This document shows positions 7,247-57,606 of a stretch of 64,000 nucleotides of DNA, piece after piece (within the stretch, counting starts at the first letter, position 1; each line of letters opens with the position of its first letter). This DNA is from Patescibacteria group bacterium (GTDB lineage: Bacteria > Patescibacteriota > Microgenomatia > 2-02-FULL-39-11). The stretch is taken from NCBI GenBank assembly GCA_023379265.1, contig JAMCUI010000009.1, forward strand, positions 100,091 to 164,090, written 5' to 3'. The translations under genes and the position numbers were made by a program. The notes under the pieces were generated by a model, which saw nothing but the letters and a program-made list of their open reading frames with translations, had not been told where the DNA came from and made no database searches.

Positions 7247-7626
7247 TGATGATTATGCTGGATATGATATTCTTTCTTACGCTGACGATGGACTAGTTCA
7301 AACTATATCAGCTGTAAATGAAACATTCCTTTTTTAAGGTGTCTCATTTGTCTCATTTAGCCTCAGGTATGATACACTATAAGGATAGAAGTTATAACGA
7401 TTGTAAGGGTCTTGACCGGCACGCTCAGCCATTCGACTCACTTTATTCGCTCATGGCTATAGCCAGTGAGTTGAATGTCATGAGTGAGCACAGCGAATTG
7501 AAGGGTTCTGACTGTCTCGCTCAGCCAAATTGGGCGCAGAAGAAATACAACTATTTTACTTTGTTCACTCGCTGTTATAATTGCCACATTAGATATTCAA
7601 AATCTCAATCCTTAGAATCGTTTTTA

Positions 7627-24067: not shown

Positions 24068-25369
24068 ATGTATAAACATAATTTCCAAAAGAGATACGGC
24101 AGGTTAGGTTTTGGCGGATTCCACCGCAGACACGGTTTTAACCGACGCGGAAGTAGCGCCGGTCGAAGGATAAATGCCGTAAGCCGCAGGTCAGATATTG
24201 GCCCATCGGTGTATATAAGAAAGCGAAATAATACAGGTCTAAGGGAAAATGCCGTAAGCCGCAGAACTATTGTTGATCCCTCAAGATACATCAGTAGTGA
24301 AAATACCCAGCCTATCCAGGAAAAATATACTTCACAGCACAGTTTTGATGATTTTCCTATAGACAACAGGTTAATACAAAATATATATGCCCGCGGTTAT
24401 GAAAAGCCAACACCAATTCAGGATCAGGCGATTTTTCCCATACTGGAAGGAAGAGATGTAGTTGGTATTGCCAATACTGGCACCGGCAAAACAGCAGCAT
24501 TTCTCATCCCGGTCATAAACAAGATTTTGAATGAAAGCGCAAATAAGGTACTTATCGTCATCCCTACAAGGGAGCTGGCAGTACAGATAGATGATGAGTT
24601 CCGGGCGATATCAAAAGGTTTAGCTATCACATCACTTCTTTGTATCGGGGGAGTCAGCATCAATCGTCAGATTTTCAGCCTACAGCAAAATCCCAGTATT
24701 ATAATAGGTACTCCAGGCAGGCTAAAGGATCTTTCCCAGAGGAGATTTCTGGACCTTTCTAATTTCAAGACTATTATACTTGATGAGGTCGACAGGATGG
24801 TGGATATAGGCTTTATACAGGATATAAAGTATATTGTTTCCCTCCTTTCACGACCGCGGCAGTCACTTTTCTTTTCCGCGACAATCTCTCCCGACGTTGG
24901 TAGTATTATACAGTCGTTTCTTACAAATCCTGTCACGATAAAAGTAAAAGTGCAAGAAACTTTGCCCCAGATAGAACAGGATGTGATAAGGGTAAGGGAT
25001 AAGAATGAAAAGCTTCAGAAATTGGACGAAATGCTTCGTCAGGAGGAGTTCAAAAAAGTGCTTATATTCGGTAGGACCAAGTGGGGAGTGGAAAGACTGT
25101 CTAGGTCGCTGCAACAGAAAGGCTTCAATGCAGCATCCATTCACGGGAATAAGTCACTAAATCAGCGTCTGCGGGTACTAACGCAGTTTAAGCTGAACCA
25201 GCTGCATATTCTGGTGGCAACAGATGTAGCGGCAAGAGGACTTGACATAGAGAATGTGTCACATGTGATAAATTTTGACGAGCCTTCTTCTTATACAGAT
25301 TATGTGCATAGGATTGGCAGAACCGGTAGGGCGCAGAAATCTGGGAAGGCGCTGACGTTTGTGGGTTAG
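24068..25369 (+). CDS. DEAD-box ATP-dependent RNA helicase with Arg-rich N-terminal extension
   Basis: Q-motif ...YEKPTPIQ. Motif I ANTGTGKT, Ia PTRELA, II DEVD, III SAT, VI HRIGRTGRAQ. The ~100-aa N-terminal R-rich extension contains a 25-aa tandem repeat. Confidence 0.9.
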   Translation: MYKHNFQKRYGRLGFGGFHRRHGFNRRGSSAGRRINAVSRRSDIGPSVYIRKRNNTGLRENAVSRRTIVDPSRYISSENTQPIQEKYTSQHSFDDFPIDNRLIQNIYARGYEKPTPIQDQAIFPILEGRDVVGIANTGTGKTAAFLIPVINKILNESANKVLIVIPTRELAVQIDDEFRAISKGLAITSLLCIGGVSINRQIFSLQQNPSIIIGTPGRLKDLSQRRFLDLSNFKTIILDEVDRMVDIGFIQDIKYIVSLLSRPRQSLFFSATISPDVGSIIQSFLTNPVTIKVKVQETLPQIEQDVIRVRDKNEKLQKLDEMLRQEEFKKVLIFGRTKWGVERLSRSLQQKGFNAASIHGNKSLNQRLRVLTQFKLNQLHILVATDVAARGLDIENVSHVINFDEPSSYTDYVHRIGRTGRAQKSGKALTFVG

Positions 25370-48170: not shown

Positions 48171-48264
48171 TAAATTTTAACTCACAATCTTGACACTTTC
48201 CCATTTTTTGTTAAACTGTAACTGATACAAATCTACGTCTAGTTTATACTGAGCTTATTGAAGT

Positions 48265-48666
48265 ATGAAAATAGCCAAGAGAGAGGATTTCGCCCTTATT
48301 TTCATGAGTGAACTTTCCAAACATTACCCTGGTGAATACGTATCATTGGGATTTATTGCCCATCAGACGAATTTATCTCCTCTTTTTTTGAAACATATTG
48401 CTTCAGTTCTTCTTGAAAAAAATCTTATTGAAAGTAAAGAGGGGATAAGCGGAGGTTACAGGTTGCATAAACCACCGCAAAAAATTACCGTTTCAGAGAT
48501 TATTAAAGCCATTTCCAAGGGGATTGTAGCACCATCCTGTGTACATGGGGGAGTCTGCCGGTTAAAACGGACATCTTGTAGCTGTTTAGCGCTTTGGGAT
48601 AAGGTGAATAGGCAGTTATACTCTTATTTGGACAATATCAGTCTGGAAGATTTCGGAAGATTATAA
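48265..48666 (+). CDS. Rrf2-family (IscR/SufR-like) transcriptional regulator with C-terminal Cys cluster
   Basis: HTH ...LGFIAHQTNLSPLFLKHIASVLLEKNLIESKEGISGGYRL... Cysteines in APSCVHGGVCRLKRTSCSC. Sits upstream of the suf genes. Confidence 0.8.
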   Translation: MKIAKREDFALIFMSELSKHYPGEYVSLGFIAHQTNLSPLFLKHIASVLLEKNLIESKEGISGGYRLHKPPQKITVSEIIKAISKGIVAPSCVHGGVCRLKRTSCSCLALWDKVNRQLYSYLDNISLEDFGRL

Positions 48667-48864
48667 AAATTTGATTATATTATAGGTTGAAAAAAGCTTG
48701 CAGTGGAAATTTTTTAGCTAGCAAAATGTCAATATTCCGAAACTGAGTCATTAAACAGTAGTTGGTTTTATGAATATAGATAGTGTAAGCGTCTCGTATG
48801 CGACCTGCGAAAACTTCCACGAGCTTCACTTTTCATACTTATATATGAAAAGCAGAGATAAATT

Positions 48865-49698
48865 ATGAGCCTTATAATAAAAAATTTATCGGTAAATTTG
48901 AGAGAAAGGCAAATCCTGAAAGAAATTTCTCTTGAGGTGGCACCGGGAACTCTTCATGCAATTATGGGTCCCAATGGGGGAGGAAAATCCACTCTTTCAG
49001 CTGCTCTTTTGGGTAATTCCGCTTATACGGTTACGGACAGGGTAAGAGGGAAAAACAAACCGCAAATATTAGTGGATAACAAGGATATAACTGGTTTGCC
49101 TACAGACATGAGAGCAAAACTAGGCCTTTTTTTGGCTTTTCAAAGCCCGATAAGCATACCAGGCGTAAATGTCGCAAATCTTTTGAAAACCGCATACCAG
49201 TTAAGCAAAGAGCAAAGAACAAAGAACCATTCGTCCCGACATAAGGAAGGACTCAGGGCAAGAAAAGATCAAAAAAAACTTCATAACCCAGCATTATCGG
49301 TTTGGGAGTTCAACGAAATGTTGGTAAAAGAGGCCAAAAAACTCTCTATACCCCAGGATTTTTTGAGGCGCAGCTTAAATGAGGCTTTCTCAGGCGGAGA
49401 GAAGAAGAAACTAGAGATGCTTCAGGCGGTCATCCTTTCTCCAAAATATGCGGTTTTTGACGAGATTGATACAGGTCTTGATGTGGATGCTCTAAAGATT
49501 GTCGCCACAGGTATTGAGCAATTGAAGAAGAAAAAAACCGGAGTCATTGTTATTACTCATTACCAAAGGATACTAAAGTATGCCAGACCGGATTTTGTCC
49601 ATATACTTGTCGGAGGAAGGATAGTAGCTTCTGGAAATAGAAATCTGGCTAAAGAGGTGGAAGAAAACGGATACAGAAAGTGGGCAGATAATAATTAA
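48865..49698 (+). CDS. sufC: Fe-S cluster assembly ATPase SufC (with an internal ~70-aa insertion)
   Basis: Walker A GPNGGGKST, signature FSGGEKKKLEMLQAV, Walker B AVFDEIDTGLD, H-loop ITHY. Confidence 0.85.
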   Translation: MSLIIKNLSVNLRERQILKEISLEVAPGTLHAIMGPNGGGKSTLSAALLGNSAYTVTDRVRGKNKPQILVDNKDITGLPTDMRAKLGLFLAFQSPISIPGVNVANLLKTAYQLSKEQRTKNHSSRHKEGLRARKDQKKLHNPALSVWEFNEMLVKEAKKLSIPQDFLRRSLNEAFSGGEKKKLEMLQAVILSPKYAVFDEIDTGLDVDALKIVATGIEQLKKKKTGVIVITHYQRILKYARPDFVHILVGGRIVASGNRNLAKEVEENGYRKWADNN

Positions 49699-49812
49699 AT
49701 CCAAAATTCAAATGTCAAATGAAATCCAAATTGAAAATATTTAATTTTAACCATTTGAGATTTGTGTTTTGGAGTTGATTAATAATTTGGCTTTTATCAT
49801 TTTTTCTAGATT

Positions 49813-51393: not shown

Positions 51394-52035
51394 ATGAAGA
51401 AAAATTCTATTGTTATTATTGACAAATTGAGAAAGAATCAGCAGTTTATTGTGGATGATGAGAGGCAGAAAACATTTTTTATCCTGTTGGACTGCGGGAA
51501 GGATGAGAGTGGAGATGTGAATATAAACATAAAAAGTGAAAGCGCTAACGTACAGATATTAGGGATAGTGTTGGGATACGGGAAACAAAAGATAGAGATG
51601 TCTACATTGCAAAAACATCTTAAGCCTAAAGGCGTATCTGATCTTTTTATTAAATCCGTACTTTTTGATGAGTCAAAGTTTTATTACCGAGGTCTTATCA
51701 AGATAGAGAAGGATGCACAAAAATCAAACGCCTATCAGAAGAATCAAACACTCCTTATGTCGAGGAGATCTTGGGCTGATACCCGTCCCTATCTTGAGAT
51801 TTTGGCAAATGATGTGCGCTGTACTCACGGGGCCACAGTCGGCAAGCTTGACGAAAACCAGTTGTATTATCTTAGCACCCGCGGGATAGAAAGAGGGATG
51901 GCGACCAAACTTTTAATCTCAGGATTTCTGCAGGACGTGGTTGACAGGATACCGCAGGAAGATGTAAGAAAGAGAGTAGAGGGAAAAATTGAGCAAAAGG
52001 TAAATCAATTACTAAATAAATCAGTCAAAGATTGA
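51394..52035 (+). CDS. sufD: Fe-S cluster assembly protein SufD (short form, 213 aa)
   Basis: ...VRCTHGATVGKLDENQLYYLSTRGIERGMATKLLISGF... SufBD C-terminal signature. Confidence 0.7.
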   Translation: MKKNSIVIIDKLRKNQQFIVDDERQKTFFILLDCGKDESGDVNINIKSESANVQILGIVLGYGKQKIEMSTLQKHLKPKGVSDLFIKSVLFDESKFYYRGLIKIEKDAQKSNAYQKNQTLLMSRRSWADTRPYLEILANDVRCTHGATVGKLDENQLYYLSTRGIERGMATKLLISGFLQDVVDRIPQEDVRKRVEGKIEQKVNQLLNKSVKD

Positions 52036-52038
52036 ACT

Positions 52039-52350
52039 ATGGGAAAAAAACTTGTTCCGGTGGCAAAAAAATCAGACATACCAGAAGGGAAAATAAAAGA
52101 GTACAAAATGGAGGGAAAGACTATCGCTGTTGTCAACACTGATGGAGAATATTTGGCGTTTGATGGGCTCTGCACTCATGCCCAATGCGCCCTTGCCGGA
52201 GGCATGTTGGATGGGCATACCGTGACGTGTTATTGTCATGGGGGACAGTTTGATATAAAGACCGGTGAAGTCCTTGCTCTTCCTCCACAATCTCCTATCA
52301 ATGTTTATAACGTGAAGATCAAAGGCGAATATCTTTTTGTGGAGATCTGA
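52039..52350 (+). CDS. Rieske [2Fe-2S] domain protein
   Basis: CTHAQC...17 aa...CHGGQF (CxH...CxxH). Confidence 0.8.
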   Translation: MGKKLVPVAKKSDIPEGKIKEYKMEGKTIAVVNTDGEYLAFDGLCTHAQCALAGGMLDGHTVTCYCHGGQFDIKTGEVLALPPQSPINVYNVKIKGEYLFVEI

Positions 52351-52591
52351 TAAATTAAAGATTCGTAATTTTAATCTATGGGTCCTACCGTTTAAGCGTT
52401 CCAATCTTTGTTTCAGAGCGCTCGCGAGAAATAGTTGAATAGTGTCCTTATAGTCTTAGTCGCTCGCTTAATGAAACTTAGCTTGGAAATCCTTCTTAAA
52501 CGTCACCCATTTATGAAAATTAATGTATTTGATTGACATAGAGTAAAATTTCCACTTGCTTTGCTTTTTTAGAATATTAGGTTAGGCAAAT

Positions 52592-53821
52592 ATGTTTGAT
52601 CTCAAAAAAGTAAAAAAGGATTTCCCTATTTTTGACAGGCTGATAAACGGCAAAAGGATTGTATATCTTGATTCTACAGCTTCGACCCTAAAGCCGCGCA
52701 AAGTGATAAGCGCCTTAAATGATTACTATACCCGCTATAGCGTCAACATATTTCGAGGGTTGTATACATTATCTGAAGAGGCTACAGCCGAATACGAAAA
52801 AGCCCGGCAGAAAATAGCCAGGTTTATCGGTTGCGGGAATCCCAAGGAAGTTATTTTTGTCCGCAATGCTACTGAGGGAGTCAATCTTGTGGCTCAAGCC
52901 TGGGGAGAGATAAATATTGGTAAGGGTGAGGAGATTGTTTCCACCGTGATGGAGCATCATGCCAATATCGTACCCTGGCAGGAATTGGTAAAGAAAAAGG
53001 GGGCAGTATTGAAATTTGTAGATTTTGATAATGAGGGATATCTGGATTTGAATGATCTAGAGAAAAAAATCAACAGAAAAACAAAACTATTTGCCGTGAC
53101 GTATATGTCAAACGTTTTAGGGACAATAAATCCTGTTTCCAGGATCATTAAAACAGTCAGGAGGATAAATCCGCAGGCAAAAATTCTTATCGATGCCGCA
53201 CAGGCAGTGCCACATCTGAAAGTTGATGTAGACAATCTCGGATGTGATTTTTTGGTTTTCTCAGGTCACAAAATGCTTGGACCGACCGGAATAGGAGTAG
53301 TCTGGGGTAAATATGAGCTTTTGGACGGAATGTTTCCATATCAGTTTGGAGGAGACATGATAAAGGAAGTTTACCTTGATAAGACTGTTTATAAAGAGCC
53401 TCCGCATAAATTCGAAGCGGGTACTCCACATATTGCAGGTGCTATAGGTTTAGGAGCTGCAGTTGACTATCTTTTTGAACTTGGTATGGATAATGTCAGG
53501 CTACATGAAATTAAATTGACCGAATACGGTTTAAGGAGCCTGAAAGGAATAGACGGCTTGACAGTTTACGGTCCGCAAAAAGCTCAAGAAAGGGGAGGAG
53601 TGTTGGCTTTTAACCTCAAAAAAGTGCATCCTCATGATGCAGCGCAGGTACTAAACGAGGATAATGTCTGTATCAGGAGTGGACACCATTGTGCAATGCC
53701 GGTACATACAAAGTTACACATACCTGCTTCTTGTCGTGCAAGTCTCTATATTTACAACACTGAAGAAGATATCGATCAACTTGTATTATCCCTGCAGAAA
53801 GCCGTTAAAATATTCACTTAA
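52592..53821 (+). CDS. sufS: Cysteine desulfurase SufS
   Basis: PLP lysine in ...FLVFSGHKMLGPTGIG... Active-site ...RSGHHCA... Confidence 0.9.
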   Translation: MFDLKKVKKDFPIFDRLINGKRIVYLDSTASTLKPRKVISALNDYYTRYSVNIFRGLYTLSEEATAEYEKARQKIARFIGCGNPKEVIFVRNATEGVNLVAQAWGEINIGKGEEIVSTVMEHHANIVPWQELVKKKGAVLKFVDFDNEGYLDLNDLEKKINRKTKLFAVTYMSNVLGTINPVSRIIKTVRRINPQAKILIDAAQAVPHLKVDVDNLGCDFLVFSGHKMLGPTGIGVVWGKYELLDGMFPYQFGGDMIKEVYLDKTVYKEPPHKFEAGTPHIAGAIGLGAAVDYLFELGMDNVRLHEIKLTEYGLRSLKGIDGLTVYGPQKAQERGGVLAFNLKKVHPHDAAQVLNEDNVCIRSGHHCAMPVHTKLHIPASCRASLYIYNTEEDIDQLVLSLQKAVKIFT

Positions 53822-53836
53822 ACAAAGTTTTGCCTC

Positions 53837-54217
53837 ATGGATAATTTCTATAGAGATAACATACTGGATCATTATAAAAATCCCCGTAATTTCGGCAGAC
53901 TGAAAAAGCCGGATGTCTCATACAGTGAGGAGAATGTGACGTGCGGGGATAAAATAGGAATGGAGGTAAAATTCAGAATTCAAAATTCAGAATTCAAAAT
54001 TATTGAGGATGTGCGTTTTTGGGGAGAGGGGTGCGCCGTCTCCATGGCTTCCTCCTCTCTTTTGACGCAGAAGGTGAAAGGTATGGATGTATTGAAAGTA
54101 AAGAATTTGGGTAAGGAAGATATACTAAAACTTTTAGGAATTGAGTTGACTCCAACCAGACTTAAGTGTGCACTCCTGCCTCTTGAGGTGTTGCAAAAAG
54201 CTTTACAAGGAAAATAA
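53837..54217 (+). CDS. sufU: SufU/IscU-like Fe-S scaffold / sulfur acceptor
   Basis: ...ILDHYKNPRNFGRL...VTCGDKIGMEV...WGEGCAVSMASSS... Confidence 0.85.
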   Translation: MDNFYRDNILDHYKNPRNFGRLKKPDVSYSEENVTCGDKIGMEVKFRIQNSEFKIIEDVRFWGEGCAVSMASSSLLTQKVKGMDVLKVKNLGKEDILKLLGIELTPTRLKCALLPLEVLQKALQGK

Positions 54218-54312
54218 AAGGGTCTTGCCATCATAGTGTATTTGTTTTATAACTAAAATACTGTTCTAAAATGACTTTATTAAAGTAAATTAATTTCTGG
54301 AAGGAGAGAGAG

Positions 54313-54588
54313 ATGGATCAAACAAATAATTCTTCAGGTGCTTCGGGACCATCAGGCCCAAAAAAGGTAAACAATGTTACGGTTGTAGTAGACAGAAATC
54401 TTTGTATTGGTGCGGCTTCTTGTGTGGCTGTGGCGCCAAAGACTTTTGCCTTGGATAATGAGGCTAAAGCGATAATATTGGATACCGCAACCGAAGATAG
54501 TTTAGATACGATAATGGACGCGGCCAAGTCGTGTCCGGTAGCTGCTATAATAATTCATGACGATACAGGTAAACAGTTGTTCCCGTAA
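54313..54588 (+). CDS. Small ferredoxin (single-cluster 3Fe-4S/4Fe-4S type)
   Basis: ...VVVDRNLCIGAASCVAVAP...AKSCPVAAI... Confidence 0.65.
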   Translation: MDQTNNSSGASGPSGPKKVNNVTVVVDRNLCIGAASCVAVAPKTFALDNEAKAIILDTATEDSLDTIMDAAKSCPVAAIIIHDDTGKQLFP

Positions 54589-54663
54589 GTAGATGTGACT
54601 CACAGAAGTGTTGTAGCTGCGATTATTATTCACGATGAATCCGGCAAACAGTTGTTTCCTTAA
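54589..54663 (+). repeat. Tandem partial duplicate of the ferredoxin 3' end (last ~16 codons + stop), in frame with the preceding stop codon
   Basis: GTAGCTGCGATTATTATTCACGATGAATCCGGCAAACAGTTGTTTCCTTAA versus the original GTAGCTGCTATAATAATTCATGACGATACAGGTAAACAGTTGTTCCCGTAA. Confidence 0.6.
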
Positions 54664-54676
54664 AACCTGATATTTC

Positions 54677-54877
54677 ATGCTAAATAATCTGTCCTCCACA
54701 ATCTTAAGTTCGTCCGTAACTAAATTTGCCGCGGATGACGAAAGAAATTCAATTTCTTCTCGACTAAATCTACACGATTGTCCTTCATGCAATTTTGAGA
54801 CGCTGATGGGTATGCCTGGCAGCGCAGATGCTATATGCAAGAACTGTGGTTTTAAGGAACCTTGTTGTGCTGATTAA
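54677..54877 (+). CDS. Small zinc-ribbon-like protein (66 aa; CPSC...CKNC...CC)
   Basis: Two CxxC pairs. Between the ferredoxin and the OFOR genes. Low support. Confidence 0.3.
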   Translation: MLNNLSSTILSSSVTKFAADDERNSISSRLNLHDCPSCNFETLMGMPGSADAICKNCGFKEPCCAD

Positions 54878-54965
54878 AATTAATTTAACTTTAATATTCT
54901 GAATTTATACAAATATTGGCGGATTATTGGTAGTTAGTGATGAAATAGTGTTAATTTAGCTGACC

Positions 54966-56717
54966 ATGATCAATTTAACTGTAAAAATTGGAGGAGAAGC
55001 CGGTTTTGGAATTATGACGACTGGTCTTTTTTTGGGCAAGATCGCCACCAGAAGCGGTTATCATGCGTTTGAATATACTGAGTATCCATCTCTTATACGC
55101 GGAAGCCATAATGTAGTAGGTGTAAGGATATCCGACGAAAAAACGTATTCACAGGAAGAGAAGGTGGACGTGCTTCTTTGTCTGAATGCAGATACTTACA
55201 AACGTCATATTTCCGAAATGAAACAGGGTGGGATGGTAGTCTATGACAGGGATAAAACGGATATAAACAGTATAAAAGATGAAAATCGGGCAGACTTAGT
55301 CTATGTTCATGTGCCTTTTGCCAAAATACTACAGGAGGGAGCCTTTCCTACTGTGATGCTCAATAATATTGCTATGGGGGCTCTTATGTATCTTATAGGA
55401 GCAGATTTCGGAATACTTAAAAATCTTATTTCCGAAAACTTTATCAAAAAAGGCGAAGAAGTGATAAATAAAAATGTCAACGCATCACAAATGGGATATG
55501 ACAAAGCAAGAGAGAGCGATACTGAAGGTTATAAAGTAAAAATTCCAAAAAAGGAAAGTATCAGTTCCAGGATGTATCTGTCTGGAAATGAAGCGGTTGG
55601 TTTGGGAACTCTTGCTGCAGGATGCAAGTTTTATGTGGCGTATCCGATGACCCCTGCTTCAGCGCTTTTACACTACTTGGCTGCAAAAGCGGAAAAAAGC
55701 GGCATGGTGGTAAAACACGCTGAAGATGAGATATCAGTAATCAATATGGCTCTGGGAGCTTCTTGGGCTGGAGTACGCTCCATGGTAGGGACATCCGGTG
55801 GAGGATTTGCGCTCATGGTGGAGTCGGTATCACTGGCAGGCATAACAGAGACTCCAATTGTAATCGCCATGGTACAGCGTCCCGGTCCAGCTACGGGTAT
55901 GCCTACATGGACTGAACAGGGTGATCTTTTATTTATTGTTCATGCAGGACATGGTGAATTCCCCAAGATCGTATTATCTCCAGGGGATGTGGGAGAGGCA
56001 TATCAGTTAACAACAGAAGCTTTTAATCTCGCTGATAAGTACCAGACGCCTGTTTTTATACTTAGCGACAAGTATTTGCAGGAAGGAAAGCAGAGTATAG
56101 ATAGAAAAGAAATAGAGGAATATAAATTTGATATAAACCGCGGTAAGCTTTTGACTGCCGAGAAACTTGAAGTGCTTCCAAAAGGCGGATATAAAAGGTA
56201 TCTACTGACGGAAGACGGTATTTCTCCCCGAGCAATTCCGGGTTTGCCAAACAGTTTACAACAGGCTAATTCATATGAGCATATTGAAGATGGGCACACA
56301 ACCGAGGATGCGCAAGAAAGGATAAAGCAGGTTGACAAAAGAAATAGAAAAATAAGGACATATCTTTCTGCCGATTTTAAGATGCCACAGCTTTTTGGTC
56401 CAAAAGATGCTGAGTTGACTATAGTTTCATGGGGATCAATGAAAGGACCGGTGTTGCAGGCCATGCAAGATTGCGGCAACAAATTTAATTATCTGCATTT
56501 TACTCATCTTTGGCCTCTGGATAAAGAAAAAGTTTCACAGGTGTTGAAAAGTCTTAGGAAGACATTGTTAGTGGAGAACAATTCTACGGCGCAATTGGGA
56601 CAGTTATTGCAAATGGTGACTGGTGTGGAACTTGATAATAAACTTTTGAAATATTCAGGCCGTCCGGTTTTTCCGGAAGAAATATTAGCGAGGATAAAAG
56701 AGTTAGGAATTGGTTAA
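54966..56717 (+). CDS. 2-oxoacid:ferredoxin oxidoreductase, fused gamma-alpha subunit (KorA-like)
   Basis: N-terminal gamma-type domain (GGEAGFGIMTTGLFLGKIATRSGYHAF). Alpha domain ...YLSGNEAVGLGTLAAGCKFYVAYPMTPAS... Confidence 0.85.
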   Translation: MINLTVKIGGEAGFGIMTTGLFLGKIATRSGYHAFEYTEYPSLIRGSHNVVGVRISDEKTYSQEEKVDVLLCLNADTYKRHISEMKQGGMVVYDRDKTDINSIKDENRADLVYVHVPFAKILQEGAFPTVMLNNIAMGALMYLIGADFGILKNLISENFIKKGEEVINKNVNASQMGYDKARESDTEGYKVKIPKKESISSRMYLSGNEAVGLGTLAAGCKFYVAYPMTPASALLHYLAAKAEKSGMVVKHAEDEISVINMALGASWAGVRSMVGTSGGGFALMVESVSLAGITETPIVIAMVQRPGPATGMPTWTEQGDLLFIVHAGHGEFPKIVLSPGDVGEAYQLTTEAFNLADKYQTPVFILSDKYLQEGKQSIDRKEIEEYKFDINRGKLLTAEKLEVLPKGGYKRYLLTEDGISPRAIPGLPNSLQQANSYEHIEDGHTTEDAQERIKQVDKRNRKIRTYLSADFKMPQLFGPKDAELTIVSWGSMKGPVLQAMQDCGNKFNYLHFTHLWPLDKEKVSQVLKSLRKTLLVENNSTAQLGQLLQMVTGVELDNKLLKYSGRPVFPEEILARIKELGIG

Positions 56718-57606
56718 AAAGAATATGATGGAAACTACTAATCCAAATGTTTTTGCAGGCTATTTTCCGACGTGGTGTCCTGGATGTGGAGATTTTGGGA
56801 TTTGGGCAAGTATAAAAGGTGCACTGGCAAAACTAGGTTATTCCCCGGAAGAGATGGCTGTTGTTTTTGGCATAGGTTGTTCAGGCAATATGAATGATTT
56901 TCTCTGGGTGGATAGTTTCCATGCTCTGCACGGTCGCGCAGTTCCAAATGCCGTAGGTATCAAAATAGCCAATCATAAACTGCCTGTTTTAGCCATTGCA
57001 GGAGACGGAGATTGTTATGGGGAAGGCGGAAATCATCTGATACACGCCTGTCGTGGAAATCACGATATTACCATACTGGTACACGATAATAGGGTTTACG
57101 GGTTGACTACAGGTCAAGTTGCACCAACAGGGTTGAAGGGTTTCAAAGCAAAATCTACACCTCAAGGGGTAATAGAAGTGCCTGTAAATCCGGTAGCGTT
57201 AGCTATCACCCAAGGCGCCACATATGTAGCGCAAGGATTTGCAGGTGACATAAACCATCTGACAGATCTTATTGTTGAAGGGGTTAAGCACAAAGGCTTG
57301 TCGCTTGTAAACGTATTTCAGCCATGTGTTACTTTTAATCATGTGACGACTTATGCCTGGTATAGGGAAAGACTTTACAAGCTGACTGTTCAGAACCATG
57401 ACCCTAAAGATATGAAAAAAGCATTGGATAAGTCTTTGGAGTTGGATGCGCATATTCCAATTGGGTTAATATATAAAAGTGAGAGGCCGACCTATACCGA
57501 TTGCCTACCACAGATTTCAAAAGAGACTTTGGTGGATGCGGGTTTGGGTTTTACGAAAGATGATTCCAGCGCTATGTTGCAGAAGTTCGTTCCTGAATTC
57601 CTTTAA
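56710..57606 (+). CDS. 2-oxoacid:ferredoxin oxidoreductase, beta (TPP-binding) subunit (KorB-like)
   Basis: ...WCPGCGDFG... and TPP motif GDGDCYGEGGNHL. 8-nt overlap with the alpha gene. Confidence 0.85.
   Translation: MVKKNMMETTNPNVFAGYFPTWCPGCGDFGIWASIKGALAKLGYSPEEMAVVFGIGCSGNMNDFLWVDSFHALHGRAVPNAVGIKIANHKLPVLAIAGDGDCYGEGGNHLIHACRGNHDITILVHDNRVYGLTTGQVAPTGLKGFKAKSTPQGVIEVPVNPVALAITQGATYVAQGFAGDINHLTDLIVEGVKHKGLSLVNVFQPCVTFNHVTTYAWYRERLYKLTVQNHDPKDMKKALDKSLELDAHIPIGLIYKSERPTYTDCLPQISKETLVDAGLGFTKDDSSAMLQKFVPEFL

Follow-up and report, generated by a model that had tools for sequence, protein, structure and literature searches.

A diverged in-frame duplicate of a ferredoxin gene end in Gottesmanbacteria, possibly left by recombination between lineages

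The ferredoxin gene and its neighborhood

The window, i.e., the whole 64-kb stretch of DNA that was analyzed, comes from a Patescibacteria/Gottesmanbacteria MAG. It encodes a small ferredoxin between the suf operon and the genes of a two-subunit 2-oxoacid:ferredoxin oxidoreductase (POR), the gene order being suf operon, ferredoxin, a zinc-ribbon ORF (orf66), and the two oxidoreductase subunits. The following genes are considered below:

54313..54588, plus strand: ferredoxin gene, 91 aa, single-cluster type (C31-x2-A34-x2-C37 ... C74-P75)
54677..54877, plus strand: orf66, 66 aa, small and zinc-ribbon-like (CPSC...CKNC), with a weak Zn_ribbon_8 match; called in locus L002
54966..56717, plus strand: alpha subunit of the 2-oxoacid:ferredoxin oxidoreductase (POR-alpha), its first 1.2 kb within the divergent tract described below
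56710-57606: second subunit of the 2-oxoacid:ferredoxin oxidoreductase (POR-beta)

The ferredoxin matches the Pfam families Fer4_13 (47.8 bits, cut-off 24.5) and Fer4_15 (45.3 bits, cut-off 22.4). Its ligand motif, Cx2Xx2C ... CP, is represented by C31-I-G-A34-A-S-C37 and C74-P75 and is invariant in the alignment; the alanine at the second ligand position suggests a cluster of the 3Fe-4S type. The nearest solved structures are those of PDB ID: 1DWL, 2Z8Q, and 1ROF, and the 1369 homologs collected belong mostly to Gottesmanbacteria/Microgenomates. The tail of the protein is highly conserved in the alignment of these homologs (consensus VAAIIIHDETGKQIFP). No second ferredoxin gene was found in the 64-kb window with either tblastn or blastn.

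The neighboring genes show some peculiarities of their own. The SufU/NifU_N gene (53837-54217) contains a perfect 14-nt tandem repeat, AAAATTCAGAATTC, present in 2.4 copies at 53968-54001; it includes GAATTC palindromes and is coding (KFRIQNSEFKII). The orf66 gene is not preceded by a Shine-Dalgarno (SD) sequence, and its C-terminal half is identical in the closest relative, locus L003. ORFs of this type are often missed by gene callers, and a related coding motif, RLN(I/L)H.CP.C, occurs downstream of the ferredoxin in several other Gottesmanbacteria loci.

A diverged repeat behind the ferredoxin stop codon

The stop codon of the ferredoxin gene is followed by a short spacer and a second version of the gene end:

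54538..54588, plus strand: original 3' segment, codons V76-P91 and TAA (VAAIIIHDDTGKQLFP, then stop), forming the terminal β-hairpin after the last Cys ligand
54589..54612, plus strand: spacer, 24 nt (GTAGATGTGACTCACAGAAGTGTT), stop-free in the ferredoxin frame
54613..54663, plus strand: copy, 16 codons and TAA (VAAIIIHDESGKQLFP, then stop), most likely orphaned from the 3' end of a diverged ferredoxin allele
54595..54663, plus strand: possible micro-ORF with a GTG start, 22 aa (MTHRSVVAAIIIHDESGKQLFP), from the mechanical ORF list, its expression being unsupported

The last 16 codons of the ferredoxin and the TAA (54538-54588) recur at 54613-54663, in frame and at an offset of 75 nt; the DNA of the copy starts with GTAGCTGCGATTATTATTCACGATGAATCCGGC. 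The two segments are identical at 40 of 51 positions. The 11 differences comprise ten at codon position 3 and one at position 1; eight codons carry synonymous changes, two carry conservative ones (D to E, T to S), and the stop codon is retained. Both the coordinates and sequences of the segments and this count of codon changes are as described in the original prediction. When 11 random substitutions were simulated, two or fewer amino-acid changes with the stop kept occurred with P = 4.5e-5, and ten or more changes at position 3 with P = 2e-5. The bias towards position 3 supports the earlier argument that neutral decay of a dead duplicate would not keep the peptide. A minus-strand ORF at 54502-54840 (112 aa) was considered as the constrained frame and rejected, as the variable sites would fall at its codon position 1.

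The duplicated part starts directly after the last cluster ligand (C74-P75). In an AlphaFold model of low confidence (pLDDT 57), used for segment placement only, the original segment contains strands at residues 79-83 and 88-90. The peptide encoded by the copy fits the family consensus, and one homolog (P0072) has identical last ten residues. The copy comprises neither a ferredoxin domain nor any cluster ligand, the spacer having S and V at the positions of C74-P75, and the 22-aa product of 54595-54663 has no Pfam match. The predicted tryptic peptide of the copy is SVVAAIIIHDESGK, and that of the original ends with SCPVAAIIIHDDTGK.

Such repeats are rare. A repeat scan of the whole 64-kb window yielded only three short-range imperfect repeats; a filtered scan of five shuffled windows yielded none, with a complexity cut-off that drops the ferredoxin repeat too. 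The repeat is confirmed as real and as exceeding chance.

Elsewhere in the window, a 433-aa ORF (24068-25369), which we take from its sequence motifs to be a putative helicase of the DEAD-box type, has an in-frame repeat in its Arg-rich N-terminal tail (24149-24290), the offset again being 75 nt. The repeat units contain INAVSRRSDIGPSVYI and ENAVSRRTIVDPSRYI, with an exact 18-nt core, AAATGCCGTAAGCCGCAG. An imperfect direct repeat is also present at 7396-7527 (offset 96 nt, 27/36 identical).

It is exceedingly improbable that the duplication is an artifact of assembly or binning. Contigs of related strains do tend to break near repeats (e.g., L163 breaks off after 12 nt of the copy and L166 about 68 nt downstream of POR-alpha). 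Against an artifact, four Logan loci from contigs of SRR10278331, SRR10252151, and SRR10267473 are identical across the repeat, and the two copies, at 78% identity, have no long exact word in common that could mislead an assembler. These loci match the window at 99.99-100% identity over 3.4-10.3 kb, with one mismatch, which lies outside the repeat; as L164 and L002 stem from the same contig, the four loci represent three sequencing runs. The ferredoxin protein is also present in two NCBI MAG records. The artifact that the original prediction had allowed for is thus contradicted by the recovery of the duplication in the assemblies of three runs and in two NCBI records.

The spacer and the junction

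Homology between the two gene ends begins sharply at V76. The original prediction read the extension behind the stop codon (VDVTHRSV VAAIII...) correctly, but the spacer part of it is not homologous to the 24 nt preceding the original segment (54514-54537), with which it shares 9 of 24 positions (37%), compared with 78% identity between copy and original. Differences at codon positions 1 and 2 amount to 9/16 in the spacer and 1/34 in the copy (Fisher p = 3.9e-5). As the homology is discontinuous at V76, a simple, evenly aging tandem duplicate is ruled out. No other copy of the spacer occurs in the window or in any locus searched, except in the same strain. The only microhomology at the junction is GTAG, which occurs at the start of both spacer and copy; the site was negative for inverted repeats and att-like motifs, and TRF reported no 75-nt tandem array.

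These properties bear on an in-situ tandem duplication of 75 nt (the last 24 codons and the stop), arising through slippage or unequal crossing-over and followed by decay of the dead copy. The offset of 75 nt corresponds to the sum of spacer and copy, and the native downstream flank adjoins the copy. In L163, a more distant relative discussed below, the spacer codons next to the copy (GCA GGT GCT) also resemble that gene's own A-C-P codons (GCA TGT CCT) at 7 of 9 positions. However, neutral decay predicts neither the uneven conservation of spacer and copy nor the concentration of 10 of the 11 differences at third positions. As a complete explanation tandem duplication is refuted; it could serve only as the origin of the repeat, supplemented by selection or overwriting, and altogether it is unlikely.

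An RNA element was rejected as an explanation: the region 54530-54700 folds less stably than its shuffles (z = +1.4), no terminator-like site was found near the repeat, two promoter-like matches nearby do not exceed the number in shuffles (mean 2.6), and Rfam gave no match apart from a sub-threshold one to isrI.

Comparison with the closest relative

The closest relative (L003/L169) encodes a ferredoxin with 95% amino-acid identity and has a single gene end. Its alignment with the window contains a gap of exactly 75 nt with aligned flanks on both sides: L003 lacks the 75 nt, and its ferredoxin stop adjoins the homolog of the window sequence past the copy's stop. The start of orf66 lies 13 nt past the copy's stop in the window and 13 nt past the single ferredoxin stop in L003. 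The two genomes are 92-96% identical over most of 16 kb, and the duplication is contained in a region of lower identity:

54330..56180 (approximate, 1.85 kb), no strand: divergent tract relative to L003, containing the duplication, delimited by sliding identity and maximum-likelihood change points

Within the tract, 14.7% of the positions left of the spacer and 19.0% of those right of the copy are mismatched to L003, compared with 7.0% (52600-54330) and 7.7% (56180-57500) outside it. The right edge at 56180 is abrupt. As the ferredoxin gene itself lies within the elevated part (14.7%), the duplication is not demonstrably placed at an edge of the tract. Other tracts of low identity to L003 are found at 51400-52400 and 48200-49000; all three tracts are 76-87% identical to L003 within a background of 92-96% and have sharp edges. 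Judged by their identity profiles, the tracts indicate mosaic recombination between lineages.

The suf operon also contains intergenic insertions that are absent from L003 (48668-48863 and 51211-51396, also 52360-52544 and 49705-49809). The first two have motifs such as GCT(T/C)G(C/T)AGTG(G/T)AAATTTT and CGTATGC.A.CT..G.AAA.TT.CAC in common, pointing to a small intergenic repeat element.

With L163 as the third taxon, the site patterns in the 3' half of the ferredoxin comprise 19 window-unique, 8 L003-unique, and 23 L163-unique sites; by these counts, the 3' half in the window is probably the more derived or imported sequence. The copy differs from the gene end of L003 at 8 of 51 sites, from that of L163 at 10, and from the window's original at 11, while the three single or original ends differ from each other at 6 sites each. 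The distance between the copy and L003 (8/51) is similar to the divergence of the flanking tract (16-19%). As a mild outgroup to the three original-type ends, the copy would fit an allele from another lineage. Two alternatives were rejected on the same sites. Intragenomic gene conversion does not agree with a copy that is no closer to its own original (11) than to L003 (8) or L163 (10), and formation of the single end of L003 by one crossover deletion between original and copy is not supported, since original-like and copy-like sites alternate along the L003 segment.

A second lineage with the same geometry

The L163 contig, k141_368281 of ENA assembly ERZ27233565, carries a ferredoxin with 85% amino-acid identity to that of the window, in a different upstream context. 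The gene upstream (2-1066) encodes a 354-aa protein instead of SufU, and thus the ferredoxin neighborhood has been rearranged there; the protein has no Pfam match and no homolog in the window or in any fetched locus. After the ferredoxin stop, a 24-nt spacer is followed in frame by GTT GCG GCT ATC (V-A-A-I), at which point the contig ends. The spacers of L163 and the window differ at 13 of 24 sites, including 8 of 16 at positions 1 and 2. In the copy, where the comparison covers 12 nt only, each of the four third positions differs and all other sites agree (Fisher p = 0.022); by hand calculation, four random differences would hit all four third positions of 12 nt with a chance of 1/495. Neither lineage has an indel or a stop within spacer and copy, as far as L163 reaches. 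The L163 spacer contains no in-frame ATG, GTG, or TTG, and the GTG of the window is not conserved. Searches that might extend the L163 lineage returned, for orf66, only the window's strain and one 50-aa protein (45% of the query, 71% identity) and, for the N-terminus of POR-alpha, only relatives at 75% identity or less.

The original prediction named conservation of the arrangement in related genomes as a check, and the outcome is divided: the arrangement is absent from L003 and about 165 other loci, whereas L163 has the same geometry. As the copy is less scrambled than the spacer in L163, a single old scar that has been dead ever since is disfavored. The L163 pattern could be explained in three ways, i.e., by selection on a translated copy, by overwriting of the copy by later imports, or by a non-vertical history of L163.

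The rearranged neighborhood of L163, with its unrelated 354-aa protein upstream, might also recall the remnant of a mobile element. Such an element would have integrated in the 3' end of the ferredoxin gene while bringing a replacement end, and would later have been deleted nearly completely. Integration of this type with a substitute end yields a diverged in-frame duplicate of exactly this kind. On the other hand, only 24 nt separate the two copies, the neighbors are SufU, orf66, and POR with no integrase or element genes nearby, and the lack of inverted repeats and att-like motifs noted above also counts against an element. Moreover, the two lineages would have to have a secondary deletion in common to be left with the same 24-nt remainder. 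A mobile-element origin is therefore very unlikely.

A second gene-end duplicate in POR-beta

A comparable duplicate is found in L003 at the start of POR-beta, where the window has one copy of the sequence concerned:

56746..56781, plus strand: 5' coding segment of POR-beta, single-copy in the window

In L003, a 77-nt insertion at the 5' end of POR-beta (L003 5353-5485, corresponding to L169 8091-8205; window 56745/56746) duplicates 37 nt. The insertion contains an old N-terminal fragment (MKIMETTNPNVFAGYFPTWCP), which runs through a frameshift to a stop. This fragment is followed by an apparent diverged end of the alpha gene, a new SD sequence (GGAAGGAG), a new start (MNAASS...), and the second 37-nt copy. 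From its second Met (METTNPNVFAGYFPTWCP), the old fragment has 18 residues that are identical in amino acids to the N-terminus of POR-beta in the window. Four of the five differences between the two 37-nt copies of L003 fall at third positions, as do all nine differences between the old fragment and the single copy of the window within the 37-nt repeat.

A repeat scan over 870 kb of related loci recovered the ferredoxin and POR-beta duplicates and seven others; six of the latter have no codon-periodic pattern, and one, in L067 (offset 105), was flagged as periodic. Gene-end duplicates with a synonymous signature thus appear, from these sequences, to arise in the clade by the joining of diverged alleles, with no selection on the leftover required. 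A single module replacement behind both the ferredoxin and the POR-beta scars was rejected, as the divergent tract ends at 56180, 565 nt before the POR-beta site, and the two are treated as separate events. Contigs end close to both duplicate sites: besides the breaks in L163 and L166 mentioned above, L002 stops about 70 nt beyond the repeat segment of POR-beta. Variation between strains in the presence of the scars may be responsible for these breaks.

Possible translation of the copy

The codon-periodic conservation of the copy next to a randomized spacer could reflect translation under purifying selection. Readthrough of the TAA at 54586-54588 would give rise to a 116-aa isoform with a second terminal β-hairpin, whereas reinitiation at GTG 54595, 6 nt past the stop in the window, would give a 22-aa product that might relay ribosomes to orf66. 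Purifying selection would then maintain the hairpin duplicate in two or more diverged lineages of Gottesmanbacteria, with ribosomes passing the TAA or restarting after it; we regard both this proposal and translation of the copy in general as rather doubtful.

The L163 contig contributes to this proposal through its spacer of equal length, in frame and stop-free, and through the first four copy codons, which differ only at third positions; the absence of indels and stops from spacer and copy in either lineage and the 13-nt distance to the orf66 start, kept behind the copy, are in line with it as well. Frequent recombination should also delete the 75 nt, so that their retention mildly favors selection. 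The extension is open in frame over the spacer and 16 codons in the window and over 12 codons in L163, but the chance of a stop-free stretch is high (about 0.68 per 8 codons by hand calculation), and the evidence from L163 consists of 12 nt at a contig end (V-A-A-I, 4/4 synonymous). No SD sequence at a usable distance precedes GTG 54595, and the L163 spacer offers no canonical in-frame start. The terminator of the copy is itself TAA, and no suppressor tRNA is encoded in the window, the sole tRNA of which is tRNA-Gln(CTG). The copy is absent from the closest relative and from all of the roughly 165 other loci, and a fragment with no cluster ligand has no obvious function. Furthermore, the POR-beta scar of L003 has the same synonymous signature with no need for selection.

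The original prediction suggested that the copy is or recently was translated. The data agree with it in that the divergence took place mostly inside a translated gene; present translation, through the GTG or by readthrough, received no positive support, given the lack of an SD sequence and of a suppressor tRNA in the window and the absence of the GTG from L163.

Origin of the copy

The best explanation, to which we assign about an even chance of being correct, is that the copy, neither translated nor functional, is the orphaned 3' end of a diverged ferredoxin allele that imprecise recombination between lineages of Gottesmanbacteria left behind. Part of the suf-fdx-orf66-porAB operon would have been exchanged with DNA of a related Gottesmanbacteria lineage. 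One end of the exchange would have been resolved imprecisely, through homology-facilitated illegitimate recombination (HFIR) or a similar one-sided join, which would have placed the last 16 codons of the second allele behind the intact gene. Before being joined, each copy would have formed the 3' end of a functional ferredoxin gene in a separate lineage; the mostly synonymous differences would follow from this history, and no later selection would be needed. We infer that the join arose by recombination with foreign DNA, which side of it was imported, and that the copy is untranslated.

Several observations are consistent with a recombination scar: the 75 nt inserted in comparison with L003, the abrupt onset of homology, the tract of doubled divergence, the POR-beta scar, and the rarity of such repeats. 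The signals around the copy agree with it too, as there is no SD sequence before GTG 54595, no terminator, and no Rfam match, the promoter-like matches remain at shuffle level, and the fold is not stabilized (z = +1.4). At the same time, a plain scar is disfavored, since a dead copy would be expected to be as decayed as the spacer; the scar model thus requires an auxiliary assumption. The L163 pattern could be accommodated if later imports from the right, stopping at the non-homologous spacer, had overwritten the copy with functional alleles, or if the arrangement in L163 were not a simple vertical ortholog. The 19% tract that starts at the copy is compatible with overwriting from the right. 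Recombination with scar-free relatives should also quickly delete the 75 nt, yet two diverged lineages keep them, and the junction microhomology (only GTAG) is unconvincing.

A donor was sought in 80 genome loci and 80 metagenome loci, six further lineages by contig look-up, and one pattern scan of viral contigs. None of these roughly 165 related loci provided a donor allele or carried the spacer as a native flank, and the best 3' end differed from the copy at 8 of 51 positions. No second copy or spacer match appeared in this search outside the window's own strain and L163, and the viral-contig scan gave nothing. The second ferredoxin with a matching 3' end, for which the original prediction proposed a search, is thus present neither in the window nor in the related loci. 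Its third option, the 3' end of another ferredoxin left behind by recombination, nevertheless fits best of those it offered, although no paralog in the window and no donor could be assigned to it. As neither was found, "allele from a related lineage" is a more apt term than "paralog".

In its most probable reading, the feature is of an ordinary kind, namely a scar of recombination within a mosaic operon, and a neat example for an uncultured lineage. A scar would be a clean and datable trace of imprecise recombination among lineages within an uncultured group of episymbiotic bacteria, and would show directly at the sequence level that Patescibacteria exchange operon segments and patch them. It would also imply that gene-end debris can look selected when it is young or imported, which would be a warning for dN/dS calls of small ORFs. 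If the copy were translated instead, it would exemplify a situation rare in bacteria, a conserved coding sequence past a TAA stop, with a bearing on termination and coupling in organisms with reduced translation machinery.

Comparison with known systems

Integrative elements that insert in the 3' end of a gene supply a substitute end and thereby create attL/attR duplications. The locus resembles these in having two in-frame, diverged copies of a gene 3' end on the same strand; it differs in the distance of only 24 nt between the copies and in the lack of an integrase. Programmed stop-codon readthrough and termination-reinitiation (translational coupling) likewise occur in bacteria. The in-frame, stop-free sequence behind the stop codon and the start codon 6 nt downstream in the window are reminiscent of such cases, whereas the locus has no readthrough context, no suppressor tRNA in the window, and no conserved start, and the arrangement is absent from the closest relative.

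HFIR is described for transformable bacteria as the anchoring of incoming DNA by homology at one end and its illegitimate joining at the other (Prudhomme et al. 2002, PMC122325, and de Vries & Wackernagel 2002, PMC122324, as cited in PMC5361080; PMC3240628). Its outcome is insertion-deletions at the border of the recombination tract. Similarly, the 75-nt insertion of the window is situated inside a tract of doubled divergence, the right edge of which (56180) looks like an ordinary homologous crossover. In contrast to HFIR, the present case has no known donor and no clear microhomology at the junction, and the event is deduced from comparative sequence only; besides, the inserted material is homologous to the adjoining gene end and not foreign.

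Orphaned 3' gene ends are a described outcome of one-sided recombination, known from T6SS effector/immunity, Rhs, and CDI loci, at which an incoming module displaces the old 3' region (PMC5361080). There, and in the proposed reading also at the ferredoxin locus, an intact gene is followed by the leftover 3' fragment of a displaced allele, which appears healthy since it served as coding sequence until its displacement. The orphans of those systems encode variable toxin domains, are accompanied by immunity genes, and are believed to persist because of their function, whereas the fragment described here would correspond to 16 codons of a conserved housekeeping ferredoxin with nothing attached.
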